From an uncultured Lachnospiraceae bacterium (GTDB taxonomy: Bacteria > Bacillota > Clostridia > Lachnospirales > Lachnospiraceae), in the NCBI GenBank assembly GCA_949484645.1, contig CASYOT010000002.1, positions 2,912 through 66,911 of the forward strand: 64,000 nucleotides of DNA, written 5' to 3'. Both the position numbers and the translations under genes were made by a program. Below are positions 427 to 44,953 of this stretch, one piece after another; positions within the stretch are counted from its first letter, which is position 1; each line of letters begins with the position of its first letter. The notes beneath the pieces were generated by a model that was not told where the DNA came from, searched no databases, and saw nothing but the letters and a program-made list of their open reading frames with translations.

Positions 427-464
427 ACAAAAAAATATTGCTGGGCAATATGGAGGGGTATAGT

Positions 465-7077: not shown

Positions 7078-7126
7078 CATTCTGGCGGGAACAAAATTTG
7101 ATGAATAAACAGGGGGAATTTGAATT

Positions 7127-8188: not shown

Positions 8189-8238
8189 TATCCGTTTATT
8201 CCAATAGGAGAATAAATTTTAAGAGTTAGGAGAGAACG

Positions 8239-9989: not shown

Positions 9990-9994
9990 CAAAA

Positions 9995-11104: not shown

Positions 11105-11143
11105 ATTTCAGAAATCTGGAAAAATAAGCATGGAGGCTGAAAA

Positions 11144-12673: not shown

Positions 12674-12711
12674 TGATTCTAAAGATATATTTATAAAATG
12701 GAGGGTAAGAA

Positions 12712-14369: not shown

Positions 14370-15068
14370 TTAAATTGTGACATTAAAGTATTGTTGGGCC
14401 TTACAGTATTTTTTCTGCCTGTTTCTGATTAAGACACTGCCGTCAGGGTTACGCAGCACAACGGAATCATCGGAGACCGGCTGTCCATATACAAACGCAT
14501 CTACTCCAATGGATACACGGTTTCCGATTGGTTCATTGCCTATAATTTTAGCTCCGGCGGCTAAGTAGAGCCCTTTTCCGAGTTTTGGGACAGTTTCGCC
14601 GACAGGGCTTTCACCGGTATTGATGGTGACATTTTGGCCTATTACAAGAAAATCACTGTAAGCTGCATTGCCAATTACGCTTCCTACCGGATGTGTAAGG
14701 AAGAATATTTCCGGCAGTTTGCCTTTGTAAGAGATAAAAAAACTATGTAAAGTTTTATTCAAGTAAATTAATTTGTCACAGACAGATTTGTTTGCGGAAA
14801 GCTCCCACAGTGAGTTAGCCCAAAAATATAAAAACTGGGCATACTGGTCAGAATGCAGATGCGAGAAAAATGTTTCGCCTTGGTTATCTGAATATGCGGA
14901 ATTTTTAATAAAACGGAAGCAATGCTCTGTCCGTTCTAAGGCGCGTTCAAAAGCGGCGTCAACGTCGCTGCCTTTTAGAGTATGAGTATTGCGATCCGGA
15001 AAAAAAAGCTCTAACTGATGCAGCGTATATGTTTGAAGTTCTTGTTTCGGTAATGATAGGTTCATTTC
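14370..15068 (-). CDS. hexapeptide-repeat (left-handed beta-helix) acetyltransferase, serine-acetyltransferase-like
   Basis: C-terminal LbH repeats (VIGQNVTINTG...AGAKIIGNEPIGNRVSIGVDAFV) preceded by a helical N-domain as in CysE-like O-acetyltransferases; start set to the internal MNLSL with GGAAG RBS (track start 15182). Confidence 0.65.
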   Translation of the reverse strand, partial: EMNLSLPKQELQTYTLHQLELFFPDRNTHTLKGSDVDAAFERALERTEHCFRFIKNSAYSDNQGETFFSHLHSDQYAQFLYFWANSLWELSANKSVCDKLIYLNKTLHSFFISYKGKLPEIFFLTHPVGSVIGNAAYSDFLVIGQNVTINTGESPVGETVPKLGKGLYLAAGAKIIGNEPIGNRVSIGVDAFVYGQPVSDDSVVLRNPDGSVLIRNRQKKYCKAQQYFNVTI

Positions 15069-16033
15069 TTCTTCCTTTTTTGAATATAAATTGGCTCTAA
15101 AATAAAACGTGGGAGAATTGCGTATGGCCATACATGGAACCATATCGTAGGATATTTGTATGTATTTAAAAATAATATCCATTTATCGTCCATATCATAC
15201 TGATTATCCTCTACGCTGTATTTTAGGATAGAATCTTTAATAAATCCTTTCATGTCAGTAAGAAAGATTTTTTTCATCTGGCTTTTTGGAAAACCGGCTT
15301 TTACGGCTGTTTGGAGCAAAAGTCTTTTATATTGCTTTACCCAGACTTCAAATAAATTAAATCCGCCGCTGTTATTATTTTTTGCGGCTAAATAGGGGGC
15401 TTTTGTCAGGATCATTTTAGTATTTTTGCCTGAGAGAATGTGAAATACGATATGCGCGTGTAGAAAATGGGTTCCAAAATATTTCTCAGGATGCTTTATT
15501 TGTTTAAATTTGCTCATTTTCAGAACGGTTGCAGATATATACGTTACATAAACGCCAATGTAATTCATCAGAAGGGTTTTATCGTAAGTAATCAGATCGT
15601 TTGTTTCCCTAAGTTTTATTCTTGGCGCTTTTCTAATGTCCGGATTGAATGTCTGTGTTGAATATGTAAAAGAATTTATATTAATATAGGCTGGTCTTTC
15701 TGTTTTTATCAGATATAATATTTTTTTTATCGCTCCGGGCAGCAATATGTCATCGTCCGAGAGAAACTGTATATATTCGCCGTTCGCTTTTTGGAAACAG
15801 TTAAAAAAATTTTTATCCATACCCAAATTTTTTGAATTACGATAATAACGTATCTTATGTTCTTTGCAATATTTTTTCATTACTTTTGGGGTCTCGTCTG
15901 TGGAAGCGTTATCTGATACAAGGATTTCAACGCCGTCTTCCAACTGCCCTAGCGCGCTTTCTAATGACTGGCATAATAAATGACAGCGGTTATAGGTAGG
16001 GATAGCGACTGTCAGTATAATTTTTTGTCCCAT
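15062..16033 (-). CDS. family 2 glycosyltransferase (GT-A fold)
   Basis: IPTYNRCHLLCQSLESALGQ...VSDNASTDET...DDD motifs typical of GT2; start set to MGQKIIL with RBS (track start 16138 overlaps the upstream gene). Confidence 0.8.
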   Translation of the reverse strand: MGQKIILTVAIPTYNRCHLLCQSLESALGQLEDGVEILVSDNASTDETPKVMKKYCKEHKIRYYRNSKNLGMDKNFFNCFQKANGEYIQFLSDDDILLPGAIKKILYLIKTERPAYININSFTYSTQTFNPDIRKAPRIKLRETNDLITYDKTLLMNYIGVYVTYISATVLKMSKFKQIKHPEKYFGTHFLHAHIVFHILSGKNTKMILTKAPYLAAKNNNSGGFNLFEVWVKQYKRLLLQTAVKAGFPKSQMKKIFLTDMKGFIKDSILKYSVEDNQYDMDDKWILFLNTYKYPTIWFHVWPYAILPRFILEPIYIQKRKKK

Positions 16034-16037
16034 GATC

Positions 16038-16970
16038 TTACCTCTTTCTTTTGGTTTCATAATACTGGATTGTTTTTTGGATGCCTTCTTCAAAGGGAAT
16101 TTCAGGCTTCCAGCCGGTATCTCTTGTAAGAGGTTCAATATTGATACAAGAACTTGGCATTATGCCGGGGGAGCTGATTTTTCTTTCGGGAGGGGGAGTT
16201 TTTTCTCCAATGCCTAAAGGAAGCGATGGGTTTATCATGTCCCGAATAGTTAAGACGTATTCCCGAAGTGTTTTGTGCGTTCCGCTTCCTATTCCATATG
16301 TAATATTATGCCTGCCTTTCTCTCCAATTTTAATAATTGCTTTTGCTACATCTGATACATAGACAAAATCCCAATTAGACTGGAGATTGCCATAGACAGG
16401 GTATTTGCCATCTAAAAGAGTGGTAATCGTATAAGTCAGGATATTGTCTTCTGTTCTTCCTTCCCCATATGTGCTTGGAAGAACAGTCCAAATCATATCC
16501 TGCCCTAATTGCGCGGCAACGGCTTCTAACAGATAGTGGACGGAAGTTTTTGTGGCTCCATAGATGTCAATGGGCGTCTGTTTCCTTGAAAAATCAATGA
16601 CGCATACATTATAAACATATTCTGCCACTGTGCCTGCGGCCAGAAATAGTTTGCATTTTAAATATTTAGAGAGACGTAACATATCCAGAGAAGTTTCGAT
16701 ATTGCTTAATTGCAAAGGAATGTTGTTTTTTTCTTTCCCAGAAACGCCTGCCCAGCCAAGATGATAAAATATATCATATGTTTTTCCAGACAGCCTTTGC
16801 GCCAGTTCTTTAAATTGATAGCCGGCAGTTATTGTTTTTACGGAAGAATTATGAAATGGCATAGAGGAGGGGGAGGAGGTCAGGACGGTTACGTTAGCGC
16901 CTGATTTTAATAATTCCGCAACAACATATCTGCCGATAAATCCGGTTCCTCCTGTAAGAATGGCTTTCAT
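16038..16970 (-). CDS. NAD-dependent epimerase/dehydratase family (SDR) sugar reductase/epimerase
   Basis: MKAILTGGTGFIGRYVVAELL Rossmann motif; YGATK catalytic YxxxK; 310 aa. Confidence 0.75.
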   Translation of the reverse strand: MKAILTGGTGFIGRYVVAELLKSGANVTVLTSSPSSMPFHNSSVKTITAGYQFKELAQRLSGKTYDIFYHLGWAGVSGKEKNNIPLQLSNIETSLDMLRLSKYLKCKLFLAAGTVAEYVYNVCVIDFSRKQTPIDIYGATKTSVHYLLEAVAAQLGQDMIWTVLPSTYGEGRTEDNILTYTITTLLDGKYPVYGNLQSNWDFVYVSDVAKAIIKIGEKGRHNITYGIGSGTHKTLREYVLTIRDMINPSLPLGIGEKTPPPERKISSPGIMPSSCINIEPLTRDTGWKPEIPFEEGIQKTIQYYETKRKR

Positions 16971-16980
16971 ATTCTTCCTC

Positions 16981-17994
16981 CTACTGTTCCATGCGTTTTA
17001 GAATGATGTCTGCATAGCTGTCTATATCGTCGGTTGTATTCGCCGACAGGCTTTCGCAATGTCTGCAGATTGGTATATCGTCTTTCCTCTTTTTTAAGTG
17101 GAGTTTTTGGTACTGGCAAAGTTTTTCGCCATTCCAAATATCCGCAATTTTTTCGGTTTTTAAATCGCCTAAAATATATTCTGTTTTCCAGTCTACACAG
17201 CACAGATGCGCAATGCCGGAATGGTTTATTACCATCGTAGTAAATAAAAATGGGCAGACTTCTTTTGGTTGTAGCTCCTGGCCGTAAGTGCCTTTATGGG
17301 CGTTGTTTATTTTTGCGCCGATATTTGTGTCCTGCCAAAGGGTGGAAGAAATGGTTTCTACAAATATTTCGTCAGACACTTTTTCAAATGTCTGGTAAAA
17401 ATTCTGTTTTTCTGTTTCGGTATAACCAATATCGCTGTATTTAATAAAGATTTTACAATTCTGTTTATTTTTATAGAAAAACTCGATTTTTTTATAGAAA
17501 TCCTGAAAGTCCATTTCGTATTGGCATACGTCTTTGTACTGTTGTTCATTAATTCCATTTACTGAAATATTTAATATGTCAAGACCTGCCTCAATAAGCT
17601 CAAGGCTGAGCGTTTCGTTTAGAAGCGTGCCGTTGGTCGTGATTTCAATACATTCTGCGGCCTCTGCTTTTTTGGCATAGGCTGCCATTTGGGCAATCTT
17701 GGGATTCATCAAGGGCTCTCCGATTTTAAACAGCCTTAATTTTTTGATTTTTTGTCTGCCCCAGCAAGAGACAATGTCGTCTATGATTTTTTGGAAAAGT
17801 TCCAAAGACATTGCGCCAAATGTTACATTAGATTTTTTTATGGTTTCCATGTCTGAGTGGAAACAAAAATTGCATTTTAAATTACAGGCGCTGCATACGT
17901 CAATTTGAATTGCAAAGGGCGCGGAAAGCGGCAGAACTTCCTGTAACGGGGTTCTTTCCCTTGCGTAAATTTTGGCTCTTCTTATTGCGCTCAT
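16981..17994 (-). CDS. radical SAM enzyme with C-terminal SPASM/twitch-like Cys cluster
   Basis: CNLKCNFC motif near N-terminus; C-terminal CPFLFTTMVINHSGIAHLCCVDW...C cysteine cluster; GGAGGT RBS; paralogous to 29444..30469. Confidence 0.75.
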   Translation of the reverse strand: MSAIRRAKIYARERTPLQEVLPLSAPFAIQIDVCSACNLKCNFCFHSDMETIKKSNVTFGAMSLELFQKIIDDIVSCWGRQKIKKLRLFKIGEPLMNPKIAQMAAYAKKAEAAECIEITTNGTLLNETLSLELIEAGLDILNISVNGINEQQYKDVCQYEMDFQDFYKKIEFFYKNKQNCKIFIKYSDIGYTETEKQNFYQTFEKVSDEIFVETISSTLWQDTNIGAKINNAHKGTYGQELQPKEVCPFLFTTMVINHSGIAHLCCVDWKTEYILGDLKTEKIADIWNGEKLCQYQKLHLKKRKDDIPICRHCESLSANTTDDIDSYADIILKRMEQ

Positions 17995-18020
17995 CGTTGT
18001 ACCTCCGTGTGGTCTGCTTT

Positions 18021-19805
18021 TTAAGGCAGCATAAGTTTTTTTATTTCATCTTCTTCTAAGAAAGGATACATATCATGTAAAGCGGGAGTTTTCATTTTGC
18101 CGTTTTCATCTATGCGTGACATGACTTTTGGAATAACAGGATCGTCAAATGCCTGCAATACTTCCAGTATCATATGCTTTGTTGTCTGCATAAAAGCATG
18201 TAAGCAGGAATCCACTTCGCCATTATTATGGCAGCAAAGATATTTAAACCCGAATGTGTCTGCAATTTTTTTAAAATCAGGGAAACTTACTCCGGTATCC
18301 GGCGTACAGCCAATGTATTCTCCTTGAAAGAAGTTTTTTGAAGTCTGCCGGATTGCCCCATAACCTTCATTTGAAAAGATAACGATTGAAATTGGAAGAT
18401 CGTACTGGGCAATCGTTTGAAGTTCTTGTAGGTTCATCATTATGCTTCCGTTTCCTGTAATGCAGTATACGCCGGATTTGGAGGAGATGGCGGCGCCTAT
18501 GGCCGCGGGAATATCGTATCCCATAGATCCGCAAGTATAATTTGTAAGAATCCGTTGGTTTCTCTTTTGGGTTCCAATTTGTAATTTTGCAGTATTTGCG
18601 CTGTTGTTGCCAAGCGCTAAAATGCTGTTATCCGGTTCATGTGAATGGAACTGTTTCCAAAAATAGTAGGAAGAAACCCTGTCTGACAAATGAACGCCAT
18701 GCCGGATTGCTTCATATGGAGAAAAGCGTTCTTTTAGGTTTTGGCAGTAGGAAAGCCATTCTTTATGCGGCATACAGGGGATGACGCTCTGTCTGGCAGT
18801 TTCAAAAAACTGATTTAGGTCTATATGGAGGCTCTTTTGGATTTTAAGCCCCGGTTTTAGGGCTTCGTTTTTGTCAGCGTCTATCATATAGATTTTTGCA
18901 TTTGGGGCGAAGCCGTCTTGGTTAAACCCTGTCTGCCGGAATCCCAAACTATTTCCTAAAGTTAAGATTGCATCTGCGTTTTGCAAAATAAAATTTCCGG
19001 ATCTTGATCCCACATTTCCGGAGGAGCCGAAATAAAGGGGATGCTCCATATAGAGGTTATCGGCTACCCATGCGCCTCCAATTACAGGGAGCCGCATAGA
19101 ATCAATAAAACTTAAAAACGCTTCCATACAGTTTCCGCTTCTAATGCCGGAGCCTGCAAGGATGCAAGGGCGTTTTGCAGACTGGAATTGTTGCAGAACA
19201 GATTCTATATCTTCTTTGGGAAGATGAGGGAGGGCGCTTTGATATTCTTCCGGTTCATATAATTCGCTTTCTTCGATATTTGCGCTCTGGATATCCTGTG
19301 GGACGTCTAACCAAACGGGTCCCCGCCTTCCGTCCATAGCGATATGAATTGCTTTAACCAATTCTCTCTTTACGGCGTATGGATTAGTCAGCATTGTGGC
19401 ATATTTAGTCATATTTTGAACAGATGGGATAATTTCAAATTCTTGCAAGCCACGATAACGTAAAGGAAGGCCTGATTTTGGGACGGAAATTTCATAACGG
19501 ACTTGTCCAGACAACACAATCATGGGCAGACTGTCCTGCCATGCTCCCATCACGCCTGTTATGGCGTTGGTGGAACCGGGGCCAGAGGTGACGCAGACCG
19601 CCGCCATTTTTCCGCTGTATCTTGCATAGGCTTCTGCCGCCATGGCGCACGCCTGTTCGTGGTGGTTAAAGTATTTATTCATTTTCGGACATTTTAGCAA
19701 AGCGTTGTCTAAAAACATCGCGCCTCCGCCAACGACAGCAAAACAGTCTATAATTCCGTATTCTGTCAGTGTGTCCATAATGATGTCAGCCACTCGTTTT
19801 AACAT
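18021..19805 (-). CDS. ThDP-dependent acetolactate-synthase-like enzyme (YerE-like two-carbon branching enzyme candidate)
   Basis: 594 aa with ALS/POX family architecture; ThDP-binding GDG...N-type region in the C-terminal third (CITGNGSIMMNLQEL); N-terminal VGGGAMFL...VCVTSGPGSTNAITG; GGAGGGG RBS. Confidence 0.75.
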   Translation of the reverse strand: MLKRVADIIMDTLTEYGIIDCFAVVGGGAMFLDNALLKCPKMNKYFNHHEQACAMAAEAYARYSGKMAAVCVTSGPGSTNAITGVMGAWQDSLPMIVLSGQVRYEISVPKSGLPLRYRGLQEFEIIPSVQNMTKYATMLTNPYAVKRELVKAIHIAMDGRRGPVWLDVPQDIQSANIEESELYEPEEYQSALPHLPKEDIESVLQQFQSAKRPCILAGSGIRSGNCMEAFLSFIDSMRLPVIGGAWVADNLYMEHPLYFGSSGNVGSRSGNFILQNADAILTLGNSLGFRQTGFNQDGFAPNAKIYMIDADKNEALKPGLKIQKSLHIDLNQFFETARQSVIPCMPHKEWLSYCQNLKERFSPYEAIRHGVHLSDRVSSYYFWKQFHSHEPDNSILALGNNSANTAKLQIGTQKRNQRILTNYTCGSMGYDIPAAIGAAISSKSGVYCITGNGSIMMNLQELQTIAQYDLPISIVIFSNEGYGAIRQTSKNFFQGEYIGCTPDTGVSFPDFKKIADTFGFKYLCCHNNGEVDSCLHAFMQTTKHMILEVLQAFDDPVIPKVMSRIDENGKMKTPALHDMYPFLEEDEIKKLMLP

Positions 19806-19897
19806 CTTAACGCCCCTCCAAATTTAGCTTTCGATAATTCATAACATAATTTTATATTGTTATATGGGAATTGTAAATATATATTTCTGAAAATTGT

Positions 19898-20785
19898 TTA
19901 ATAGAGTAACTGGAATAAATCTATTTCATCTTCATGTTCCAAATACCATTGATATAACTGGCGGACGGAATCTTCTATAGGCGTATATTCAAAACCGGTA
20001 AGTTCTTCCATTAAACGGGCGTTTGAAGCGGTATATTCTTTTGCCAGCCCTTCTTTACAAATGTAAATGGGGAGCTCTTTTCCGCTGATTTTTAGGACAA
20101 GGCGGCAGAGCTTTTCTAAACTGATTTTCTTTCCCGAGACGGCGTTATAGGTATGGCGGGTTGGGGCGTGATGCAAAAAATATTCTATGATCCGGCAAAA
20201 GTCTTCTACCCAGATGTAATCGAAATACACATTCTGCCGTATAGATAACGGCAGGTTTTTTATCGCTTTACAGCAGATATTTGAAATGAACTTCACGGGA
20301 TAATATTCATATTTCCCGAATATTCCGAAAAGCCGGAAGTTATAAACGTTGTCTGATTTTTCAATTAATTCCCCTATTGTATATTTCATCAAACCGTATT
20401 GGTCAGTCGGAAGGCTTTTGCCTAAATCTGTTTCCGCTACATTGGCAATGTCGAACCGTTTGTCATATTCTGCGCCTGAGCCAGAATAATACATCCTGCC
20501 AAAGAGATGGGAATTTTTATAGAAATTAAAAAAGATCCGCATATTATATTCAAATATTTTCGAACCGTCTTTCGATTTGTCTATGCTGTCGCCATATGAG
20601 GCAAAATGGAGGATGTAATCAAATCTGTGGGCTTTTAAATATTGTAATGTTTCCGTTTCTTCTATGCAGTTTAGCTCTTTGCTTGACGGAGTGTATATAT
20701 CATAATTACGGTCGTTTTTCTGGAGATATTCTTTTACGTTTCTGCCAACAAAACCGCTGGCTCCGGTAATTAATATTTTTGGCAT
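19898..20785 (-). CDS. short NAD(P)-dependent epimerase/reductase (SDR, RmlD/GDP-fucose-synthase-like size)
   Basis: MPKILITGASGFVGRNV Rossmann motif; 295 aa; paralog of 24661..25542 (shared ISNCCCKAIK...YFDY.W.EDFCRI segments). Confidence 0.7.
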   Translation of the reverse strand: MPKILITGASGFVGRNVKEYLQKNDRNYDIYTPSSKELNCIEETETLQYLKAHRFDYILHFASYGDSIDKSKDGSKIFEYNMRIFFNFYKNSHLFGRMYYSGSGAEYDKRFDIANVAETDLGKSLPTDQYGLMKYTIGELIEKSDNVYNFRLFGIFGKYEYYPVKFISNICCKAIKNLPLSIRQNVYFDYIWVEDFCRIIEYFLHHAPTRHTYNAVSGKKISLEKLCRLVLKISGKELPIYICKEGLAKEYTASNARLMEELTGFEYTPIEDSVRQLYQWYLEHEDEIDLFQLLY

Positions 20786-20955
20786 AATGTCCTCTTTTCC
20801 GAATATACAATTTTAGTTACATTTAGGGGGATGCAGCAATTAAAAAACCCTAATACTATATCGGCAATTTTTGGGGAAACATGAGAAGCGGTTGTTACGG
20901 AAAAGTTATATTTGTCCGATATAAAAATAAAGTATGGGAAAGGATGAGGGGGAAA

Positions 20956-22641
20956 ATGAGAGAAGATGAGCTTTTAGAATATGGAATACAGCAGTTTGAG
21001 AAAGAAATATACGAGGAAGCTTTAGAAGCGTTCGTTTTATTACATATGAGAGAATATAACCAAGAGGAAATCTTAAAGAATATCTATTCGTGTTATATGG
21101 AAGGGAATGAGGGGCAGTTTCGGGAGACATATGGACGTTGTAGTATTTTTAAGGAGATTCCCTATGAAGAATGTTTGCTCGATTTTGTTCCATATAAAGA
21201 AGGGGAATATTTTATTTATGATAAATTAAAAAGGGGGTTTTTGGGAACTCTTTCTTTGCCTGAAATTGAGCGTGAAAAAGAGCTGAATAGAGAATTTGAT
21301 GATATTGCGGTAGAACTTGACTGGGACTGGCGGTTGTTTAAGCCTGCTTTGAAGTGGACGGGCAAACATAAACTATACGCCATATGCCATGACAAACGGC
21401 GCTCGGTTTCATTCTGTAAGATCCCTGAAATGGAAAAATATTTTCAGAAGGTGTTTGCGTTTGGGGATCGAGAAGAATACCGGCAATATTTCCATACAAA
21501 TACCAGCGTATTTTTGCCACGTTTTTTTTGGGGGAATCAGGATGACAAACTTGCTTTGGCGCATATATGGGAGGAGGAGCACGCTTACCGTCTTACGCCT
21601 CAGGGAAGGAATACAGAGAATGTTGTGTTGTCAATCGGGATACCGACGCATGACCGTGGGAATTTAGCTTTGGAAAAAGTGGTAAATTTGCTGACGATGT
21701 GTTATGACGCAGAAATAGAAATACTGGTTTCTAAAAATGGTATGGCGTTATATCAAGAGGAATATCGTAAAATTGCCGCAATTTCTGATGCGAGGCTTCG
21801 TTATGTGGATCATAATAAGGAACTGACGGCGGATATTTCATGGATAAAAACGGTTGAGCTGTCGAAAGGACGGTTTACGTTGCTGGTCAGTGATGAGGAT
21901 AGTGTGATTATTGAAGCGCTTGATCACTATCTTTCAATGCTTTTGGAAAATCCGGAATTGATTTTTGTAAGGGCAAAAACGGCGCTGCAATATAGTTTTA
22001 TCACGACAAAGGAGATGAAAAAAGGAATAGACGCCTTTTCTCAGGTTTTTCTCCAGAATAATTATTTATCCGGCGCAATTTTAAGACGGGAGGCTTTTAT
22101 GCGGCTTCCATTTGAAAAAATTAAAGAGGAGGCCAAAAGCAATGCGTATTATATTTCATATACGCATGAATGGTGGTTTTGCTTTTTAAGTTTCGAAGGA
22201 GATTGCCGTTTGGATGGAGAATGTCTTGTTGAAGAAGGAGACTCTGTACGGGAGAAACAGGGGGAGCAGTACAAAAAACGGGGAGAAGACGCATTGTCTG
22301 CCGGATATGATTCAGATGGGGGCCTGCAAAGTTATGCCACATATGAGAGCAGGCTGGAACAATTTAAAGGATACATTGAGTTTATTCACTATATAGAGGG
22401 AAAAGGCGGGGGAAATCTGGCGCAAAAAGGGGTTAAACTTGCAATCAACAAAACAATCAGTCTGATTAAATTGGCGTATTTTGGATTTCATTATAAGACA
22501 GATGAGATTATGGAAGTGTTGGACAAGTTTAGCAGGCTTTGCATATCAGCAGTGGAAGAATTTGCTTTTACTGCGGAGGAGAAAGAGTCGCTGCTTCGGA
22601 TATTGCTTCATCAAATTCAAAATGGTGGATGGGAAATATAA
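20956..22641 (+). CDS. large GT2-domain protein with helical N-terminal domain (paralog 1), candidate glycosyltransferase
   Basis: Central VVLSIGIPTHDRGNLALEKV...LLVSDED segment resembles a GT2 Rossmann/DxD region; start set to M26 (ATG 20956) with GGATGAGGGGG RBS; 562 aa. Confidence 0.55.
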   Translation: MREDELLEYGIQQFEKEIYEEALEAFVLLHMREYNQEEILKNIYSCYMEGNEGQFRETYGRCSIFKEIPYEECLLDFVPYKEGEYFIYDKLKRGFLGTLSLPEIEREKELNREFDDIAVELDWDWRLFKPALKWTGKHKLYAICHDKRRSVSFCKIPEMEKYFQKVFAFGDREEYRQYFHTNTSVFLPRFFWGNQDDKLALAHIWEEEHAYRLTPQGRNTENVVLSIGIPTHDRGNLALEKVVNLLTMCYDAEIEILVSKNGMALYQEEYRKIAAISDARLRYVDHNKELTADISWIKTVELSKGRFTLLVSDEDSVIIEALDHYLSMLLENPELIFVRAKTALQYSFITTKEMKKGIDAFSQVFLQNNYLSGAILRREAFMRLPFEKIKEEAKSNAYYISYTHEWWFCFLSFEGDCRLDGECLVEEGDSVREKQGEQYKKRGEDALSAGYDSDGGLQSYATYESRLEQFKGYIEFIHYIEGKGGGNLAQKGVKLAINKTISLIKLAYFGFHYKTDEIMEVLDKFSRLCISAVEEFAFTAEEKESLLRILLHQIQNGGWEI

Positions 22642-22938
22642 CATTTTATTTTGTTCTAAAGTTTCTATAGGAAATATCCGATATATATTTATAGCAGTGA
22701 TTTCGGGCGTATTGTAAAAACCCAAAAATCATGGGGGGGGGGGGTAAACAGAATGAATAATTTTGTTTTGGATCGTTTTTCCAATTATATAAATAAAGAG
22801 TTTTGTATTGCCCTTCCGGGTGGTTTTTCAAAGAATTATTACTGGGCATCTATGATGCGTAAATAAAAAGTTGACATTTGCCAACTTTTTTGTTTTATAG
22901 AACACAAGTAAAATTAAGAAGGGGATGAAGGGCTTTTA

Positions 22939-24654
22939 ATGGGAAATAGAATATTAGATTATGCTTGTGAACAGTTTGAGAGCCGTAATTATTGTGAAGC
23001 GTTGGAAGCGTTTGTTTTAGCTTATATGAAAGGTTATGAGCCGGAATGGGTGATTGAAAACATTTATAATTGTTATGTGGCTTGTAATGAGCCGGAATTT
23101 CGCAATGCTTATGGAAAGTGTGGGGCAGAGGTAAGCTATGAGGATTGCGTGTTGGACTTTATGCCTTATAAAGAAGGGGAATATTATATTTTTGATAAAG
23201 AGCGAAAGCAATTTATTGGAAAGTTCTTAGTTTCAGAACTAAAGATGGTTTCATCAGAGGAAGCATTAAATGAAATCGAGTTTGGCGCGGTGGCGGAAGC
23301 GTTCCATTGGAATCTGAAGGAAGAATATCAACTGCTTGCGGCGGCAAAAGACAAGAAAGTGTATGCAGTCTGCCATGAAATCAATTATATTTCTTCCTTT
23401 TATAAAATACCGGAGTTAGAAGAATATAATAAAAATGTGAAATTGTTTCAGGATTTCAGTCAGTTTCAGCAATATTTCCATAAAAATACGGGAGTTTATC
23501 TGCCCCGGATTTTGTCAGGGGATTTAGAGAGTGTAAAAGAATTAAATGAAATAGTTGAAGCGGAACATCAATTTAGATTAACTCCGGAGGGACGCAATAC
23601 AGATCACGTATTGCTTACGATTGGGATACCTTCACGGAATAGAGGGAATCTTTTGTTAAAACGGCTGGAAAATCTGCGGAACATAAAACTGGATGCGGAA
23701 ATTGAAATTGCAATTTCGAAAAACGGCGTGGATTTCTATCAGGAAGAATATGATCAAGTGAATCAGGCGCAGGATTCCAGAATTTGTTATTATGATCATC
23801 ATAAGGATTTGGTGGCGCCTGAGAATTGGCATTTTGTGGTAGAAATGGCGCATGGGAAGTTTGTATTGCTGGTTTCGGATGAAGATGACATTATTTTAGA
23901 TTCTTTAGGGCATTATCTAAAGCTGATAACGGAGTATCCGCAAGCGAGTGTGATAAGGGCAAAGTCCTGCATATTTTATTCACGTTTATCGGAAAGATTG
24001 TATGCGGAAGGGACGGATGCATTAAAAAAAGGATTTTTGAAGCAAAATTATTTGTCAGGGTTGATTTTTAACAGGGAAAAGTTTCTAAAGCAAAATTTGC
24101 TGCGGTTAGAAAAATTCCGGGAAGATAATTTATATTATTGCCTGTATCCGCATGAGTGGTGGTGCGCCATTTTGTCAAAAAACGGCGTTTATATGGAAGA
24201 ACCGTTTTTGTTGGTTCAGGAACGTGAGTCTGTGATTCAGGAAGAAAACTCAAAATATATTGAAAAAGGAGTGATAGAAGAAGGAGAGCATATTGCAAAG
24301 GGAACAAGTCTGCCGGCGTATTCCACATATGAAAGCCGCTTACAGCAGTTTTTGGGCATGATGGAATTTGTGCGTTGGATTGCAGATGGGGATAAGGAGC
24401 TTGCTTTTTTTTGCGTTGCAAGTTGTATAAGTAAAATTTTATTTCTATTGCTGCTGGCAAGGGAGAGGGGGTATGAAGTCTCAAACTTTATGAATATAGT
24501 TGATAAATTTTGCAAAATGTCTATTGAAGCAATCCGTGAGTTTGATTTTTCTGAGGAACAGCAAGTGAAGTTATTATCAATATTAAAAACAAGCGCAATA
24601 GAAACATATGGGCAAGAGAGGGAGATTTTTGAAAAAGAACAGAATGCAGGATAG
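22939..24654 (+). CDS. large GT2-domain protein (paralog 2 of 20956..22641)
   Basis: Aligns with paralog 1 over its whole length (EALEAFVL..M..Y...I.NIY.CY......F...YG.C; GIP..NRGNL; LLVSDED; HEWW); AAGGGGATGAAGGG RBS. Confidence 0.55.
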   Translation: MGNRILDYACEQFESRNYCEALEAFVLAYMKGYEPEWVIENIYNCYVACNEPEFRNAYGKCGAEVSYEDCVLDFMPYKEGEYYIFDKERKQFIGKFLVSELKMVSSEEALNEIEFGAVAEAFHWNLKEEYQLLAAAKDKKVYAVCHEINYISSFYKIPELEEYNKNVKLFQDFSQFQQYFHKNTGVYLPRILSGDLESVKELNEIVEAEHQFRLTPEGRNTDHVLLTIGIPSRNRGNLLLKRLENLRNIKLDAEIEIAISKNGVDFYQEEYDQVNQAQDSRICYYDHHKDLVAPENWHFVVEMAHGKFVLLVSDEDDIILDSLGHYLKLITEYPQASVIRAKSCIFYSRLSERLYAEGTDALKKGFLKQNYLSGLIFNREKFLKQNLLRLEKFREDNLYYCLYPHEWWCAILSKNGVYMEEPFLLVQERESVIQEENSKYIEKGVIEEGEHIAKGTSLPAYSTYESRLQQFLGMMEFVRWIADGDKELAFFCVASCISKILFLLLLARERGYEVSNFMNIVDKFCKMSIEAIREFDFSEEQQVKLLSILKTSAIETYGQEREIFEKEQNAG

Positions 24655-24660
24655 GAAGAT

Positions 24661-25542
24661 ATGAAAACGATATTAATTTTAGGATCAACCGGATTTATAG
24701 GGAGAAATTTAAAGGAATGGTTTGAGAAAAAGAAACAGTACACAGTTTTATGTCCTAATCGCAAAGAACTGGATTTGCTCGATGAAAATATGGCAGATTC
24801 CTTTTTGGCGGCGCATAAAATAGATGTGGTTTTTAATTGCGCAATATTTTCTCCAAAGTCGGAAATGGAAGAATTGGAAGTGATTGAAAAGGATTTGCGT
24901 ATGTTTCTGAACCTTGAAAAAAATAAAGATAAATTTGGCAAAATGTTTTATTTTGGCTCTGGGGCGGAATATGATAAGACAAAGCCTATTGTACAAGTGA
25001 AAGAGACGGATATTGGGAAAAGCATTCCGAAAAGCAGATATGGCATGGTAAAATATGTAATTGGACAAATGATAGATGGATCGGATAATATCTATAATAT
25101 ACGGATATGGGGTCTGTTTGGGAAGTATGAAGACTGGTGGACGACATTTATATCGAATTGCTGTTGTAAAGCAATTAAGGATTACCCAATTTCCATTCGA
25201 AAAGACACGTATTTTGATTATCTTTGGATAGAGGATTTTTGCAGAATTGCCGAATGGGCAGTTGGACATGAATTTGAGAGCCATACATACCATGCAGGGA
25301 GCGGACGGCGTATCTTACTGTCAGAAATTGCAAAAATAGTAAGGGACGTCAGCGGCAGGGAATTAGACATTGTTATTTGCAATGAGGGGTTGGGCAATGA
25401 ATATACGGCGGACAGCTCACGTCTGATGAAGGAATATGGAAAAGACTATGTTACCCCTATGGAAACGGCAATCAGGGAATTGTATACATGGTATGAAACG
25501 CATCCGGAAATTATCAGTATGCAGAAATTAATATATGGTTAA
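24661..25542 (+). CDS. short NAD(P)-dependent epimerase/reductase (SDR), paralog of 19898..20785
   Basis: MKTILILGSTGFIGRNLKEW Rossmann motif; 293 aa; conserved blocks shared with the minus-strand paralog. Confidence 0.7.
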   Translation: MKTILILGSTGFIGRNLKEWFEKKKQYTVLCPNRKELDLLDENMADSFLAAHKIDVVFNCAIFSPKSEMEELEVIEKDLRMFLNLEKNKDKFGKMFYFGSGAEYDKTKPIVQVKETDIGKSIPKSRYGMVKYVIGQMIDGSDNIYNIRIWGLFGKYEDWWTTFISNCCCKAIKDYPISIRKDTYFDYLWIEDFCRIAEWAVGHEFESHTYHAGSGRRILLSEIAKIVRDVSGRELDIVICNEGLGNEYTADSSRLMKEYGKDYVTPMETAIRELYTWYETHPEIISMQKLIYG

Positions 25543-25570
25543 AACTTTTAGAGATTGAGAGGAATTTAAA

Positions 25571-26572
25571 ATGAACGATATTTTTGAAAACAAGTCAGTG
25601 CTGATTACCGGAGGGACGGGTTCTTTGGGAAAGTATTTTACAAGATACATTCTGACGCATTTTAATCCGCATCGGGTAGTGATATTTTCGCGTGATGAAT
25701 ATAAACAGAGCATGATGAAACAGGAATTTGCGCAGTATGGGGATAAGCTGAGATTTTTTATCGGTGACGTGAGGGATAAAGACAGGCTTCTAAGGGCGTT
25801 CGACAGAGTGCAGATTGTAATTCATGCAGCAGCGATTAAACAGGTGCCGACTTGTGAATATAACCCGATAGAGGCTATTAGGACGAATATTAATGGGGCG
25901 ATGAATGTCATTGACGCCGCGATTGACCGGAAGGTGGAGTGTGTTGTGGCGTTGTCAACGGACAAAGCGGTGAACCCGGTAAACTTATATGGCGGAACAA
26001 AATTAGTTTCGGACAAGCTTTTTGTGGCGGCGAATGCCTATGCAAAAATTTCAGGGACAAAATTTAGCGTTGTCCGGTATGGAAATGTGGCGGGCAGCAG
26101 GGGAAGCGTGATCCCGTTTTTTGAGAAACTTATGGCGGAAGGAAAGACAACGCTTCCGGTGACGGACGTGCGCATGACGCGGTTTTGGATTGATTTGGAG
26201 CAAGGGGTTAAATTAATTTTAAAAGCTTTATATACGGCTGTTGGCGGCGAAGTTTTCGTTTCTAAAATACCTTCTTTTAAAGTGACGGATTTGGTAAAAG
26301 CCATGAATCCGGATGGTTCCATTGAGGAAGTCGGTATCCGTGAAGGGGAAAAGCTGCATGAAGTAATGATTACAGATGTAGATTCAAGAAGGACGGTTGA
26401 ATTAGGGGACTGTTATGTGATTATGCCGGAATTTTCATGGTATAAGCCAAATGAAGAAATAAAAGCGGGGAAAAAGCTTCCAGATGAATTTGTTTATAGT
26501 TCAGATAAAAATACGAGCTGGCTTTCTGTGGAACAGCTTCAGGAAAAATTAAAATTATATCGAAAGAAATAG
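25571..26572 (+). CDS. pseB: UDP-N-acetylglucosamine 4,6-dehydratase (inverting), PseB/FlaA1/CapD family
   Basis: VLITGGTGSLGKYFTRYIL...HPHRVVIFSRDEYKQ...FFIGDVRD signature of the PseB/FlaA1 polysaccharide-biosynthesis family; 333 aa. Confidence 0.85.
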   Translation: MNDIFENKSVLITGGTGSLGKYFTRYILTHFNPHRVVIFSRDEYKQSMMKQEFAQYGDKLRFFIGDVRDKDRLLRAFDRVQIVIHAAAIKQVPTCEYNPIEAIRTNINGAMNVIDAAIDRKVECVVALSTDKAVNPVNLYGGTKLVSDKLFVAANAYAKISGTKFSVVRYGNVAGSRGSVIPFFEKLMAEGKTTLPVTDVRMTRFWIDLEQGVKLILKALYTAVGGEVFVSKIPSFKVTDLVKAMNPDGSIEEVGIREGEKLHEVMITDVDSRRTVELGDCYVIMPEFSWYKPNEEIKAGKKLPDEFVYSSDKNTSWLSVEQLQEKLKLYRKK

Positions 26573-26582
26573 AGGGATTCAT

Positions 26583-28040
26583 TTGGAACGGTTTGAATTA
26601 ACGGAAAAAACTAAACTATGGATTTACGGGGCAGCTTTTGGAGGGACGCTCTTATATGAAAAACTGCATAAGAATCATTATCAGGTGGAAGGGTTTATAG
26701 ATAAAAGGGCAGAGGAAATAGAGAGTTTATGCGGGCTTTCCGTCTATAGCGTAAAACAAGCCAAAGAACGTATGGGACGTGGGCAGCTAACAGTCATTAT
26801 TTCAGTGAAAAATGTGTTTGAACATAGCGGCATTGCCAGAGAGTTAATAAAAAATGGAATTACAAACATCATTTATAAGCCATATGCGGCTCTGAAAGGA
26901 TTTGCAGACGAATCAGCAAAAGAAATGTTTGAGCTTCATAATCAGTTGATTGATTGCGGCTTTTGTAAGGGCGGCAGGTTTTGCAGGGCGGACGAAATAG
27001 AAAAGAATTGGGAAATCCCAAAAGAATATCTGCTGGCCAAAGATTCCAAAATGCAGACAGTTTTTCTGCCTCTGCCTATGCTGTTTGAAAACCAAAGCGT
27101 TACGGGCGGATATAAGGAACGGAATGTTTGTTTTTTATATCCGCACATACAATTCTTCCGGTATCTTCAAGGAGAAGCCGGCGCTTCCTGCCAGCGCTAT
27201 CTGGAGTATTGTGAGATGGCAGTGGAAGAATTGGATTCTTTTCAAGTTACGGAAGCGTGGAAAGAAAATGTGATCCGAAACAGGGCAGATGTGTTTTACC
27301 AGATGAACCATGCGTTTTTGTTCCAGAAAGATTTTTTTGTCAGAAATTCGCCAGAGGCGGAATGGAATGAGGACGGATACTTTAACTTGAAAAGCGGGAA
27401 GCACAGAGCGGCATTTTTTGCCGCCCGCCGTCAGATGTATATTCCCGTAAAGATCACTCATTCGGATGCAGAAAAATGGATTTCTGAGGATAGGGCAAAT
27501 GAGGTGAAAAAAGAGCTTTTACAACAGGGCGTATTTGAATTAAAAGCTCCGGTTGAGCATCCATTTTTTTATCAGATGCCATGTACGGCAGAGAATTTTT
27601 TCTATGGCGTATGCTGTGCGTTGGCAGATGAACTCGGCGGGTTGTATTATCAAACGCCAATGGATCATGTACTGAAAGGCAAAAAGATATATTTGAATGT
27701 AGATGATTATGGGTTTGTCAGCCGTTTTTTCAGGAGAAGCGGGGCTATGGCATACGATGCCGATGAGAGGGACCGGAAATTGAAAGAAGCGTTAGAAAGG
27801 TTGTTTTCGCTTCGTTTTGGGAGGCTTGTCGCCGCTCAGGAACATTACGACTTGGCGGTGTTCAAAACAGACTGCCCGCAAAATTTGAAGCAATGTCTGG
27901 AAACTATTTTTGCGGATCATTATTTTATCCTTGCCCCAGAGAGTATTTTGTTGGAAACTGAGCGGATAAAAAGAGTTTATTGCGGGGCTGCGTGGGGAAA
28001 AAGCATGGTTTTGTGGCATTTGGAGAAATGTAATGTTTGA
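26583..28040 (+). CDS. uncharacterised protein family member 1 (PglD_N-like Rossmann N-domain + central DGHHR-type motif)
   Basis: TTG start after AGAGGGA RBS; N-domain KLWIYGAAFGGTLLYEKL...VEGFIDKRAEEI; central YFNLKSGKHRAAFFAARRQMYIPVKI; paralogs at 28033 and 30528. Confidence 0.5.
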   Translation: MERFELTEKTKLWIYGAAFGGTLLYEKLHKNHYQVEGFIDKRAEEIESLCGLSVYSVKQAKERMGRGQLTVIISVKNVFEHSGIARELIKNGITNIIYKPYAALKGFADESAKEMFELHNQLIDCGFCKGGRFCRADEIEKNWEIPKEYLLAKDSKMQTVFLPLPMLFENQSVTGGYKERNVCFLYPHIQFFRYLQGEAGASCQRYLEYCEMAVEELDSFQVTEAWKENVIRNRADVFYQMNHAFLFQKDFFVRNSPEAEWNEDGYFNLKSGKHRAAFFAARRQMYIPVKITHSDAEKWISEDRANEVKKELLQQGVFELKAPVEHPFFYQMPCTAENFFYGVCCALADELGGLYYQTPMDHVLKGKKIYLNVDDYGFVSRFFRRSGAMAYDADERDRKLKEALERLFSLRFGRLVAAQEHYDLAVFKTDCPQNLKQCLETIFADHYFILAPESILLETERIKRVYCGAAWGKSMVLWHLEKCNV

Positions 28041-29463
28041 CATTCAAAAAGAGAGCAGGATAGTCCTTTACGGGCATTCGCAATTTGACATTGTGAAAGA
28101 TAAATTCCGGGAACTAAAAGAACGTGGATATCAGGTGCTTGGATATATAGATCAAAGGGCAAAAGAGATTGAAACGTATGTACAGGCGCCTTGTTGGACA
28201 GTAGAAGATTTTCCAGTTGGGCTAAAAGAACGCCAAGACATCGTAATTATACTGTTATTGCAAAATGCGCGGATGCATGAGTCCGTTGTATCTTCACTTT
28301 GCGGCAGGGGATTTAAAAAATTTTTATTTATACCAGAAAAAGCGGATACATCTGAGAAAACATGTATGGTGCAAAAGTACAATGCCTTTATACGGTCAGA
28401 ATATGATGAGTTGATGGGGATTCCTGAATGGGACAGCTTGTGTTTAAATTCTGTAAAAGGTGGAAAGCGGTTTTTGAAATGTGGAAAAGAACGCTGTACG
28501 CTTTTGGTTCCGGTGGAAATGCTGTTTCTTTATGAACAGGAGCAGTCTTTAGAAGAAAACATCGCGTTTGCAGAGGATTATCTGGAGTTATTTGCGGTAT
28601 TGGAAGGAAAGGCATTTGAATGCGGCCGTTATTTTGATTTCATGGGAGCGGTGGAGAAGGAAGAAAAAGAAAAATTACTGGCTGACCGTTTGGCGTTATA
28701 TTGTTTGTGGGAACATTACAGACACTGCGATATAAATTATTTTATAGAAGCGGCTGCGCTTGTTTCATGGAACCGGAGAGGATATTTTAATATTATTGAC
28801 GGGCATCATAGAGTGATTTATCTGATGGCAAAGGGGTATAAGAAGATTCCCGTATCCATGCCGCTTAAAGATTATGATAAGTGGATAGGAGAGGCAGATC
28901 AGGCATTGTCCGCTGCGCTGCGCAGATTGCGCGTCCCAATTCCACATCCGTTTTTTTTGAATGAAGAATGTATCTATGAAACGCACTGGCAGAAAGTGAT
29001 TCATTATTTATATGCGGCAGGACAAAGCAGGGACTGCAGGTTTGTGGAAATAGATACTTATATGGGATATTATGCGGGGGCTTTCCAGAGAATTGTAAAA
29101 AAAGAAGCTCTGATAGTTTTAGAGAATGAGACGGATAAACGCTTATGTGAAAGTATGCAAAGGCTCATGCATCAAAAAATACCCATTTTGAACTATCCAG
29201 AAATTATGTTTCGCGAAACCGATCTTGTCTATCTGAAATTGGCTGGAAATGAGGAAGCGTCTTTTATGCGTTTTATAAAGGACGTAACTGGACAGTGTAT
29301 TTTGCTGGATATTCCTTGGGAAGAAGAAGGGAAGACGTTAAAAGAGGCTGTCCGCATTCTTGGGGGAGATTTGAAACAGATAGGCAGTTATCATAGAGAT
29401 AAGGCGTATGGAATTTATGTGATTGAAAGGAGTGTTGGCAATTATGGCAGAGGTGACGACTAG
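28033..29463 (+). CDS. uncharacterised protein family member 2
   Basis: RIVLYGHSQFDIV...VLGYIDQRAKEIE N-domain; YFNIIDGHHRVIYLMAKGYKKIPVSM motif (ParB/sulfiredoxin-like DGHHR); 8-nt overlap with member 1. Confidence 0.5.
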   Translation: MFDIQKESRIVLYGHSQFDIVKDKFRELKERGYQVLGYIDQRAKEIETYVQAPCWTVEDFPVGLKERQDIVIILLLQNARMHESVVSSLCGRGFKKFLFIPEKADTSEKTCMVQKYNAFIRSEYDELMGIPEWDSLCLNSVKGGKRFLKCGKERCTLLVPVEMLFLYEQEQSLEENIAFAEDYLELFAVLEGKAFECGRYFDFMGAVEKEEKEKLLADRLALYCLWEHYRHCDINYFIEAAALVSWNRRGYFNIIDGHHRVIYLMAKGYKKIPVSMPLKDYDKWIGEADQALSAALRRLRVPIPHPFFLNEECIYETHWQKVIHYLYAAGQSRDCRFVEIDTYMGYYAGAFQRIVKKEALIVLENETDKRLCESMQRLMHQKIPILNYPEIMFRETDLVYLKLAGNEEASFMRFIKDVTGQCILLDIPWEEEGKTLKEAVRILGGDLKQIGSYHRDKAYGIYVIERSVGNYGRGDD

Positions 29464-30469
29464 AAGCCTTAAAAATGAAAGGACAATACTGCGGGACGTT
29501 GTCCCGGTGGACACGCCTTTTTTATTAGGCATATTTTTAGGCGATATATGTAATTTTAAATGTAAATACTGCATTCAGTCTGCAGATGAATCCGTTGAGG
29601 AGAAAAAACAGTTAGTAAGGAAATTTTTAGAGTGGGAAACATTTCTTAAAATTGCAGATTCTGCAAAACAATTTCCGAAGAAAATTAAAACGGTATTGCT
29701 GACAAGCATCGGGGAGCCTTTACTGCATCCGGAAATTGTAAAGATGTTAGAGTATATGAACCGGATTGGGCTGGCGGATAACTATGAAATCATTACAAAT
29801 GCATCTATGCTTTCTGTAGATTTGGGAAGACAATTAGTGGATGCAGGGCTTACAAGATTATGCGTTTCGCTTCAGGGGCTGACGGCGGAAAAATATAAAG
29901 ACGTCTGCGGTGTAGAGATAGACTATGATGCATTTTACCAAAATTTAAAGAGTTTTTACGAATACAGCAGGGGAAAGTGCAGCGTACATATTAAGACAGT
30001 GGATCTTTCGTTAGAGGACGGTGAAGAAGACGCATTTCTAAAACTCTATGGTCCGGTATGCGACACGATTTACATTGATAAAGTCGCTCCGGTGTTTAAA
30101 GGCGTAGATTATAGCGGCATTGTGCTTGACGGGGAGCCTTATACAGAAGATAAATACAGGCAAAATGCGGCTGTGTGCTGTAGTTCTATTTTTTATACAT
30201 TGTATACGCTTGCGGACGGACGGATCGCTCCTTGTTGTGACCATCCGCAGCCGGTTATTTATGGGGACATTAACCAGACTGGGCTTGTGGAAGCATGGTC
30301 TTCTGAAAATAGAAAACGGTTTTTAAGACAGCATTTGACCCATAAAAGATGCGAAAACGGCATTTGCGCACAGTGCGCCGCGCCGCTTGTAAGAGAGTTT
30401 GACAGTGATAAGTTAGATGGCTGTGAGGAAGCAATCTTGGCCCGTTTAGAGGGGGGTATTTTTCATTAA
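29444..30469 (+). CDS. radical SAM enzyme with SPASM/twitch-like C-terminal Cys cluster (paralog of 16981..17994)
   Basis: CNFKCKYC motif; C-terminal CCSSIF...CCDHPQ...C...C cysteines; start set to ATG 29444 after GAAAGGAG (track TTG 29423). Confidence 0.75.
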   Translation: MAEVTTRSLKNERTILRDVVPVDTPFLLGIFLGDICNFKCKYCIQSADESVEEKKQLVRKFLEWETFLKIADSAKQFPKKIKTVLLTSIGEPLLHPEIVKMLEYMNRIGLADNYEIITNASMLSVDLGRQLVDAGLTRLCVSLQGLTAEKYKDVCGVEIDYDAFYQNLKSFYEYSRGKCSVHIKTVDLSLEDGEEDAFLKLYGPVCDTIYIDKVAPVFKGVDYSGIVLDGEPYTEDKYRQNAAVCCSSIFYTLYTLADGRIAPCCDHPQPVIYGDINQTGLVEAWSSENRKRFLRQHLTHKRCENGICAQCAAPLVREFDSDKLDGCEEAILARLEGGIFH

Positions 30470-30527
30470 CGAGAAGAAATTTAGTTTTCAAGATGCAGAA
30501 GAAGTTTATATATATGGCGCATCTTAT

Positions 30528-39038: not shown

Positions 39039-39051
39039 GGAGGGGTAAAGT

Positions 39052-40362: not shown

Positions 40363-40386
40363 CACTGGAAGTAGGAGAAAGGGAAT

Positions 40387-41427: not shown

Positions 41428-41442
41428 AAAGAGGGGCGGCTT

Positions 41443-42447: not shown

Positions 42448-42453
42448 AAGCAG

Positions 42454-43584: not shown

Positions 43585-43594
43585 GGGGCATTTT

Positions 43595-44908: not shown

Positions 44909-44953
44909 CCCAAGGTTAGTTTTATGCACAATACATAAAAGGAGGGCTGAAAA

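Follow-up and report, generated by a model that had tools for sequence, protein, structure and literature searches.

Two proteins of about 570 amino acids (aa), encoded head to tail in an uncultured Lachnospiraceae bacterium and bracketed by two short-chain dehydrogenase/reductase (SDR) genes, raise two questions: what do they act on, and how did the arrangement arise? They lie in a stretch of 64,000 nucleotides (nt; GenBank assembly GCA_949484645.1, contig CASYOT010000002.1, positions 2,912 to 66,911 of the forward strand), hereafter the window. We consider it fairly probable that both are active, soluble, cytoplasmic glycosyltransferases (GTs) with a GT-A fold, which belong to an uncharacterised Firmicute family of flagellar filament or flagellin-glycosylation loci and lie in an island that unites two old modules. 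The proteins are named GT-A and GT-B; the fold classes are always written as GT-A fold and GT-B fold.

Two predicted glycosyltransferases between two paralogous SDRs

19898-20785, minus strand: SDR-1, 295 aa, first gene of cassette 1, divergent from GT-A
20956-22641, plus strand: GT-A, 561 aa
22642-22938: spacer between GT-A and GT-B, 297 bp, containing a G12 homopolymer (22733-22744)
22939-24654, plus strand: GT-B, 571 aa
24661-25542, plus strand: SDR-2, 293 aa, first gene of cassette 2, co-directional with GT-B and followed by PseB

GT-A and GT-B are colinear from end to end, with 41% identity over 551 aa (E 2e-145), and the two SDRs are 46% identical along their whole length (E 2e-103). Both paralogies are far beyond chance. 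The layout given in a preliminary description of this DNA, a head-to-tail pair of colinear proteins of about 570 aa bracketed by paralogous SDRs on opposite strands, was recovered at these positions. The paralogy itself is wider than the SDRs and transferases for which it had been claimed: the thiamine diphosphate (TPP) enzymes of the two cassettes (starting at 18021 and 34126) are 42% identical, and their radical S-adenosylmethionine (rSAM)/SPASM proteins (16981 and 29423) 29%. This paralogy of whole modules supports the two-module reading. GT-A is called from the ATG at 20956, although its longest open reading frame (ORF) begins at 20881; the start is supported by an exact public match of 561 aa (P0269; matched proteins are given by P numbers, related loci and contigs by L numbers).

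The SDRs are of the extended type, as their translations show GASGFVG/GSTGFIG (GxxGxxG), GSGAEY and YGLMK/YGMVK (S...YxxxK). SDR-1 and SDR-2 match Pfam Epimerase (PF01370) with 76.4 and 64.3 bits (cut-off 20.9) as well as RmlD_sub_bind, and their best PDB sequence matches are dTDP-4-dehydrorhamnose reductases (for SDR-2, 8g22 at E 1.8e-9). The extended-SDR fold, the GxxGxxG and YxxxK motifs and a length of ~290 aa are shared with RmlD and GDP-fucose synthase, which are 4-ketoreductases of nucleoside diphosphate (NDP) sugars. Both SDRs fall far under the NCBIfam equivalog cut-offs (30.7 and 29.6 bits for the RmlD equivalog TIGR01214, cut-off 224), and in sequence the likeness to RmlD is at superfamily level only. 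They are encoded beside TPP enzymes, rSAM proteins and PseB and not beside RmlABC. Because of these neighbours, their substrate probably differs from that of RmlD. The two enzymes may be NDP-sugar ketoreductases of a donor pathway rather than partners of the transferases.

No promoter or terminator signal above chance was found in the spacer. A sigma-70-like promoter 5' of GT-B, seen by eye, was dropped when a consensus scan of 20700-23000 did not exceed the shuffled expectation; a SigD -10 box seen by eye 5' of SDR-1 was also dropped, as the TAAA-spacer-GCCGATA pattern fails at 20859. A small ORF in the spacer has relatives only in the same strain, among the loci fetched.

Catalytic domain and family

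aa 1-222 of GT-B, nt 22939-23604: N-terminal domain (N-domain)
aa 223-430 of GT-B, nt 23605-24228: GT-A-fold domain
aa ~461-571 of GT-B, nt 24319-24651: C-terminal helical bundle
nt 23878-23886 in GT-B and 21892-21900 in GT-A: DED motif
nt 24151-24162 in GT-B and 22168-22179 in GT-A: HEWW motif

The catalytic domain shows a Rossmann-like GT-A fold, in agreement with the central GT2-like Rossmann region described previously. We aligned 25 family members including both window copies (alignment A1; residue numbers are those of GT-B). The DxD motif expected after strand beta-4 is D314-E315-D316, the DED of the preliminary description, which is present in both copies; D314 and D316 are invariant, and E315 is at least 90% conserved. 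About 70 columns are invariant, and GT-A carries every one of these residues. They include I228, P231, R235 and G236 in the first strand ('IPxxNRG') and S260 and N262, which belong to an 'SKNG' where GT2 enzymes usually have 'DDGS'. H405 and W408 of HEWW are invariant as well, while E406 varies to G, D and M. HEWW had been assigned to the C-terminal domain, but it belongs to the catalytic domain, where it lies on a model helix (404-414). The helical bundle of the C-terminal 110 residues is less conserved, with a mean majority-residue frequency of 0.47 vs 0.67 in the catalytic domain. E406 lies at roughly the expected distance from the DxD motif; its firm assignment as catalytic base was dropped, since the position varies. 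H405, by contrast, is invariant, and E428 is ~90% conserved. The enzymes are presumably GT2-like, inverting and metal-dependent, and the DED would bind a divalent metal and the NDP-sugar.

GT-B matches Pfam GT2 (PF00535) over residues 227-339 with 28.9 bits (cut-off 23.3), and a precomputed PF00535 match exists for about half of the homologs. Scores for more specific families stay low, with 22-25 bits for TIGR04440 (cut-off 70) and 16-23 bits for WcaA (cut-offs 382-496); GT-A gives weak matches of this sort only. Among 5.8 billion proteins searched, more than 240 are full-length relatives (550-590 aa, 44-52% identity); none has an informative name, and the named sources are all Lachnospiraceae. 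GT-A falls in a small divergent subclade whose members are 51-71% identical to it (main family, 40-46%), and GT-B is 44-52% identical to GTs of other genomes vs 41% to GT-A.

N-terminal domain

The N-domain had been described as helical. Its model indeed has three helices, to which a beta-meander and a 4-stranded alpha/beta subdomain must be added. We found no PDB counterpart of the alpha/beta subdomain, and a Foldseek search of the N-domain against PDB gave only insignificant matches to COMT-like Rossmann folds (E of at least 0.027, TM ~0.3). Kinship of the N- or C-terminal domain with FliS, with the flagellin-glycosylation component Maf or with a GlfM-like small ORF next to Maf (see below) was tried and rejected (hhalign probabilities 0.1-1.9%).

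When 1.84 billion representative proteins were searched with a profile of the N-domain, only 253 clusters (50% identity) came up, most of them with the ~570-630-aa layout of GT-A and GT-B. In longer proteins the N-domain is always directly ahead of a GT2 domain. This unit is fused to extra domains of the GT-B fold type (P0122, P0126, P0127 and P0197), to a second GT2 (P0222), to DUF2920 (P0178), to a tetratricopeptide repeat (TPR) plus a sulfatase-like region (P0180) and to an SDR (P0217). The fusions to GT domains, SDR and DUF2920 point to a putative role in multi-step glycan work. The fused SDR of P0217 was considered as an SDR-1/2 type and rejected, as it resembles the other SDR of cassette 1 (16038, E 9e-12) vs SDR-2 (E 0.056). 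P0178 is a 936-aa fusion of DUF2920, N-domain and GT2, encoded at 2433-5243 of L028 between NeuB/NeuC-like and nucleoside triphosphate (NTP)-transferase/DegT genes. The flagellar glycosylation locus of Campylobacter likewise encodes DUF2920 proteins.

Related loci

Neighbourhoods were counted for 30 non-redundant family genes. A Maf gene is immediately upstream in 20 of them and within 10 kb in 24, and a TPP enzyme is encoded within 10 kb in 22; the 295-aa SDR is adjacent to the GT in six and within 10 kb in nine. The usual neighbours of the GT are Maf and the TPP enzyme, and the SDRs are not obligatorily linked. Related contigs read flagellin, small ORF, Maf, GT and then a variable set of sugar genes; fliD and fliS often precede them. 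The family is encoded in flagellar or flagellin-glycosylation loci, nearly always beside flagellar filament genes. In the 20 loci with Maf immediately upstream, Maf and GT are on the same strand and their stop and start codons often overlap or abut; genomes with two islands pair Maf and GT at about 1:1.

Distant members (~30% identity) were detected in Mobilitalea, Clostridium kluyveri, Paenibacillus, Psychrobacillus and Lysinibacillus. In Paenibacillus the homolog lies between a Maf-legionaminic acid (Leg) cluster and flaG-fliD-fliS-fliT. In C. kluyveri, RmlA/C/B/D-like genes and a flagellin gene come after it, and in Lysinibacillus it is located between flaG-fliD-fliT-fliS and a set of TPP, SDR, NTP-transferase and DegT genes; in both species Maf is absent within 10 kb on either side. 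The flagellin beside the C. kluyveri homolog (L036, 17459-18928; CP110856.1) has a VWA domain between Flagellin_N and Flagellin_C.

In a neighbour-joining tree, GT-B groups with GTs from other genomes and GT-A in its own small subclade. We rejected the idea that GT clades track the downstream cassette, as the GTs with cassette 1 downstream fall in three separate clades (short internal branches; indicative). Copies from the same genome with different cassettes tend to cluster, again as an indication.

Predicted function and acceptor

The flagellar loci of the relatives, the conservation of the catalytic domain and the content of the island together carry the proposal that GT-A and GT-B are active flagellin-locus transferases. 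It is supported by the invariance of D314, D316, H405 and W408 across the 25 homologs, both copies included, and by the absence of membrane, flippase, polymerase and priming-transferase genes from the island; no protein of the window has more than one hydrophobic segment. The preliminary description had named the pair the best candidates for flagellin-directed O-glycosyltransferases of the non-nonulosonate sugars. This agrees with the flagellar islands and with the Maf-less loci of C. kluyveri and Lysinibacillus, and what supports it is context. Since those two species encode homologs by flagellar genes without Maf, the family probably can act on flagellin itself and not only on a sugar installed by Maf.

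How such a transferase might work can be sketched. The N-domain, with one TPR-like unit and a novel alpha/beta subdomain, would position the acceptor, by analogy with the TPR domain of the flagellin O-glycosyltransferase FlmG. To judge from synteny, the acceptor may be unfolded or chaperone-bound flagellin before export, or Maf-modified flagellin. More speculatively, the adjacent TPP-enzyme, SDR and rSAM genes could make the donor from an NDP-4-keto-6-deoxyhexose, and it would then be a deoxy-sugar with a branch or some other modification. An analogy for a TPP-dependent branched deoxy-sugar is yersiniose synthesis by YerE/YerF. It is plausible that the paralogous GTs have two donor or acceptor specificities. 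With its two modules the strain could place two different non-nonulosonate sugars on flagellin, besides the pseudaminic acid (Pse)- and Leg-type sugars handled by Maf.

Several observations weigh against this proposal. No flagellin gene lies inside the window, and the flagellar link is made by synteny with relatives. The 'SKNG' in place of the canonical nucleotide-binding 'DDGS' leaves the donor class ambiguous, and we identified no conserved acidic catalytic base after the DED in the 25-member alignment. GT-A has no Pfam match at E<0.01 and does not reach the GT2 score. The TPR resemblance of the N-domain is limited to a single repeat-sized unit without a Pfam TPR match, and source names in the family are all 'hypothetical protein' or 'glycosyltransferase'. 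The nearest structural neighbours act on teichoic acid and not on protein. Finally, GT clades follow the genome and not the cassette, which weakens the case for the adjacent cassette supplying the donor.

The last point would fit an alternative that we regard as possible but unlikely, in which the GTs do not act on the protein but, as obligate partners of Maf, extend a glycan by adding a second sugar onto nonulosonic acid that Maf has attached to flagellin Ser/Thr. Clades that follow the genome follow its Maf as well, and the tight coupling to an immediately upstream Maf in 20 of 30 loci, the ~1:1 pairing and the fusions to other GT domains, which suggest chain building, all favour extension. 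Against it are the C. kluyveri and Lysinibacillus homologs, which stand by flagellar genes without a nearby Maf. Neither window GT adjoins Maf, and in L034 the gene after Maf encodes a TPP enzyme, with the GT 6.5 kb away. Nor is there detectable sequence kinship or a shared domain between GT and Maf (hhalign probability <1%): the GTs have no Pfam match to MptE-like or Maf_flag10_N, and profile-profile comparison with Maf gave probabilities of 0.2-0.4%.

It is improbable that the acceptor is non-flagellar (wall teichoic acid, an S-layer or some other polymer of the surface) or that the two proteins are non-catalytic scaffolds for Maf. The top structural matches of the family are indeed RmlT, TarS and TarP, GT2 wall-teichoic-acid transferases of Listeria and Staphylococcus, and the lack of an identified catalytic base and the sub-threshold GT2 score of GT-A point the same way. 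RmlT, TarS and TarP are only 10-11% identical to the family, their catalytic domain is N-terminal without the 222-aa N-domain, and their genomic context is teichoic acid and not flagella. What speaks against this alternative is that genes for teichoic acid or polysaccharide export are absent from the island, that in Clostridia and Bacilli alike the family is linked to flagellin, fliD, fliS and Maf, and that the invariant DED is accompanied by many invariant residues within the catalytic domain.

Origin of the two modules

DNA identity is 52.5% for the GT pair and 54.6% for the SDR pair, with almost no shared exact words, and identity at third codon positions is ~40% and ~37%, which is saturated. 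The pairs are therefore old paralogs. Each module (GT, SDR, TPP enzyme and rSAM/SPASM protein) is found singly in other genomes. The six genes of cassette 1 trail the GT co-directionally in L007, L010 and L015, and the order GT, SDR-2, PseB is present in L004/L005. These two also keep the gene order of the rest of cassette 2, which L017 and L023 keep in part. A divergent SDR-1/GT-A pair is seen again in L022, whose GT is 71% identical to GT-A, and in L034/L035 (64%), with the remaining cassette 1 in opposite orientation in the latter. As part of the overall reading favoured above, the window would join two old paralogous modules by recombination between mosaic glycosylation islands, with cassette 1 inverted together with SDR-1.

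The preliminary description had instead pictured a duplicated unit of SDR plus transferase that then rearranged, which is not supported in that form, in view of the low DNA identities, the saturated third positions, the single modules elsewhere and an SDR adjacent in only six of 30 loci. A recent local tandem duplication of SDR and GT, with one SDR inverted and the copies diverging in place, would account for the evident paralogy and for head-to-tail GTs between two SDRs, but is highly improbable given the same DNA divergence, a GT-B nearer to GTs of other genomes than to GT-A, a GT-A subclade with 51-71% identical orthologs of which three have the divergent SDR-1 arrangement, and the single occurrence of both modules elsewhere.

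The surrounding sugar island

The pair is embedded in an island of ~55 kb that, according to Pfam and NCBIfam annotation of the window, contains soluble enzymes only (~40% GC).

438-806, plus strand: small conserved ORF (longest ORF 122 aa; 104-109 aa in relatives), overlapping Maf
763-2685, plus strand: Maf (Pfam MptE-like, 1.3e-34)
2766-14352: heptose/transketolase/rSAM block (GmhA, GmhB, SDR, HldE-like kinase/cytidylyltransferase, split transketolase, two rSAM/SPASM proteins, B12-binding rSAM protein)
14370-20785, minus strand: cassette 1 (SDR-1, TPP enzyme, rSAM/SPASM protein, SDR, GT2, uncharacterised ORF)
~15062-16138, minus strand: conventional GT2 of cassette 1 (Pfam)
16038-16970, minus strand: SDR of cassette 1 (Pfam)
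16981-17994, minus strand: rSAM/SPASM protein of cassette 1 (Pfam)
18021-19805, minus strand: TPP enzyme of cassette 1 (Pfam)
24661-36845, plus strand: cassette 2 (SDR-2, PseB at 25571, three paralogs, rSAM/SPASM protein, methyltransferase, NTP_transf_2-like ORF, TPP enzyme, aldo/keto reductase)
26583-28040, 28033-29463 and 30528-31757, plus strand: the three paralogs of cassette 2 (485, 476 and 409 aa)
29423-30469, plus strand: rSAM/SPASM protein of cassette 2
34126-35937, plus strand: TPP enzyme of cassette 2
downstream of cassette 2: methyltransferases
38187-44047: Pse pathway (PseF, I, G, C and H; PseB apart at 25571)
44129-48145: CDP-hexose-type genes
48186-55020: Leg-type pathway

In the window, Maf and the GTs are ~18-20 kb apart, with rearranged sugar genes in between. 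Nearly all related loci have the small ORF that precedes Maf, at 42-68% identity. It has no Pfam match, DUF8042 included; the equivalent small ORF of a distant relative carries DUF8042. By its position and size it is a candidate GlfM, a helical-bundle specificity factor required by some Mafs (bioRxiv 10.1101/2023.12.03.569772). The window encodes both Pse- and Leg-type pathways, with two NeuB homologs and two CMP-transferases, but only one Maf.

The gene content of the heptose/transketolase/rSAM block suggests a heavily modified heptose or higher-carbon sugar, which may be destined for flagellin. The block recurs in L010 and L034. A sigma-28/SigD-like sequence (TAAA-N16-GCCGATA) lies at 5051-5077 on the plus strand, 5' of the 542-aa ORF (5449-7077) that heads the block; this consensus has two matches in the window vs 0.23 expected. 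In the GT2 region of cassette 1 the longest-ORF models overlap (270 and 358 aa) and are probably over-called, the public calls being 231 and 323 aa. The three paralogs of cassette 2 are 23-28% identical to each other and have at most faint PglD_N/NeuD-like N-termini; the trio is kept in cassette 2 of L004 and L017.

Poly-G tracts and strain variation

The window has four tracts of at least eight G, all on the plus strand: 5185-5192 (G8), 12999-13007 (G9), 22733-22744 (G12) and 36982-36990 (G9). A/T runs of at least ten are absent from the window. Three contigs from other samples (L029, L030 and L031) are 99.7-99.8% identical to the window. Exactly three indels set them apart from it, each of them in a homopolymer:

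12999, inside the B12-rSAM gene: G9 in the window (gene intact), G10 in L029 and L030, G11 in L031 (gene split in all three)
15803, in the GT2 of cassette 1 (minus strand): A7 in the window, A6 in L029, L030 and L031
22733, in the spacer between GT-A and GT-B: G12 in the window, G10 in L029 and L030, G11 in L031

The intact B12-rSAM protein (546 aa) is indexed in 134 blocks of the collection. With the A7 run (15803-15810) the GT2 of cassette 1 is intact in the window and in L039, and with A6 it is split into 101 and 227 aa in L029-L031. L039 carries G9 and A7, like the window, and contig L026 begins directly after the G12 tract of the spacer. The G9 at 36982 splits a methyltransferase gene (36845-37544), and G8 or G11 would restore a 232-aa protein, colinear with and ~72% identical to its adjacent paralog (37571-38266), which has no G tract there.

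The pattern of tract lengths resembles the phase variation of flagellar glycosylation loci in Campylobacter, or else it may reflect homopolymer errors in sequencing or assembly. A bolder reading, doubtful in its entirety, would make the family a new Firmicute-wide class of dedicated flagellin O-glycosyltransferases whose novel N-domain docks flagellin or a complex of Maf, GlfM and flagellin. In this Lachnospiraceae, two of these enzymes would each be supplied by a TPP/rSAM-dependent branched-sugar pathway of its own and be switched by hypermutable poly-G tracts. The switches of this doubtful reading would be the G12 between the GTs, the G9 in the B12-rSAM gene and the G9 in the methyltransferase gene. 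If it were true, the immunodominant flagellin of a gut commensal would carry a phase-variable glycan coat, as in Campylobacter.

Significance

Among the antigens of the gut microbiota, the flagellins of Lachnospiraceae are major ones, and innate immune receptors bind them as ligands. To our knowledge their glycosylation is essentially unstudied, and we found no work on Lachnospiraceae flagellin glycosylation in the literature. The family described here is compact and conserved (253 clusters) and is the best candidate for the transfer of non-nonulosonate sugars to flagellins of Gram-positive bacteria. The length differences of the poly-G tracts are a hint that flagellar glycoforms may be phase-variable in a commensal Firmicute. 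Tractable relatives that carry the family are C. kluyveri, Lysinibacillus, Paenibacillus and Roseburia faecis (JCM 17581, L019).

Comparison with known flagellin glycosylation systems

The closest setting is that of Clostridium sporogenes, for which a 2026 survey predicted flagellin GTs described as 'GT2 domains with TPR repeats', located by a single maf and a 3,6-dideoxyhexose pathway (PMC13317340). The island of strain NCIMB 10696 has a single maf, two GT2-type candidates and Pse and dideoxyhexose pathways in a flagellar hypervariable region, the same setting as in the window (PMC13317340). The C. sporogenes candidates and the window GTs are both sequence predictions, and their likeness is one of setting. 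The window GTs have a single TPR-like unit, a beta-meander and an alpha/beta subdomain and not a multi-repeat TPR array. The C. sporogenes prediction favours the flagellin reading proposed here, and it already anticipates this kind of system.

Maf and GlfM stand side by side with the GT family in the same islands, and both are cytoplasmic components of flagellin glycosylation. Maf uses CMP-nonulosonates and belongs to a different fold class. FlmG, the flagellin O-glycosyltransferase of Caulobacter crescentus, is a cytoplasmic protein of 596 aa that acts before export, with an N-terminal TPR domain that binds flagellin and a C-terminal catalytic GT domain (PMC7591256). Its modular logic, an N-terminal module followed by a catalytic domain, and its size are similar to those of GT-A and GT-B. 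However, there is no sequence homology, and the catalytic domain of FlmG has the GT-B fold and transfers pseudaminic acid, whereas the window GTs are of the GT-A fold/GT2 type with a DED motif. Because of this difference, GT-A and GT-B are expected to use another class of donor than FlmG, namely an NDP-sugar.

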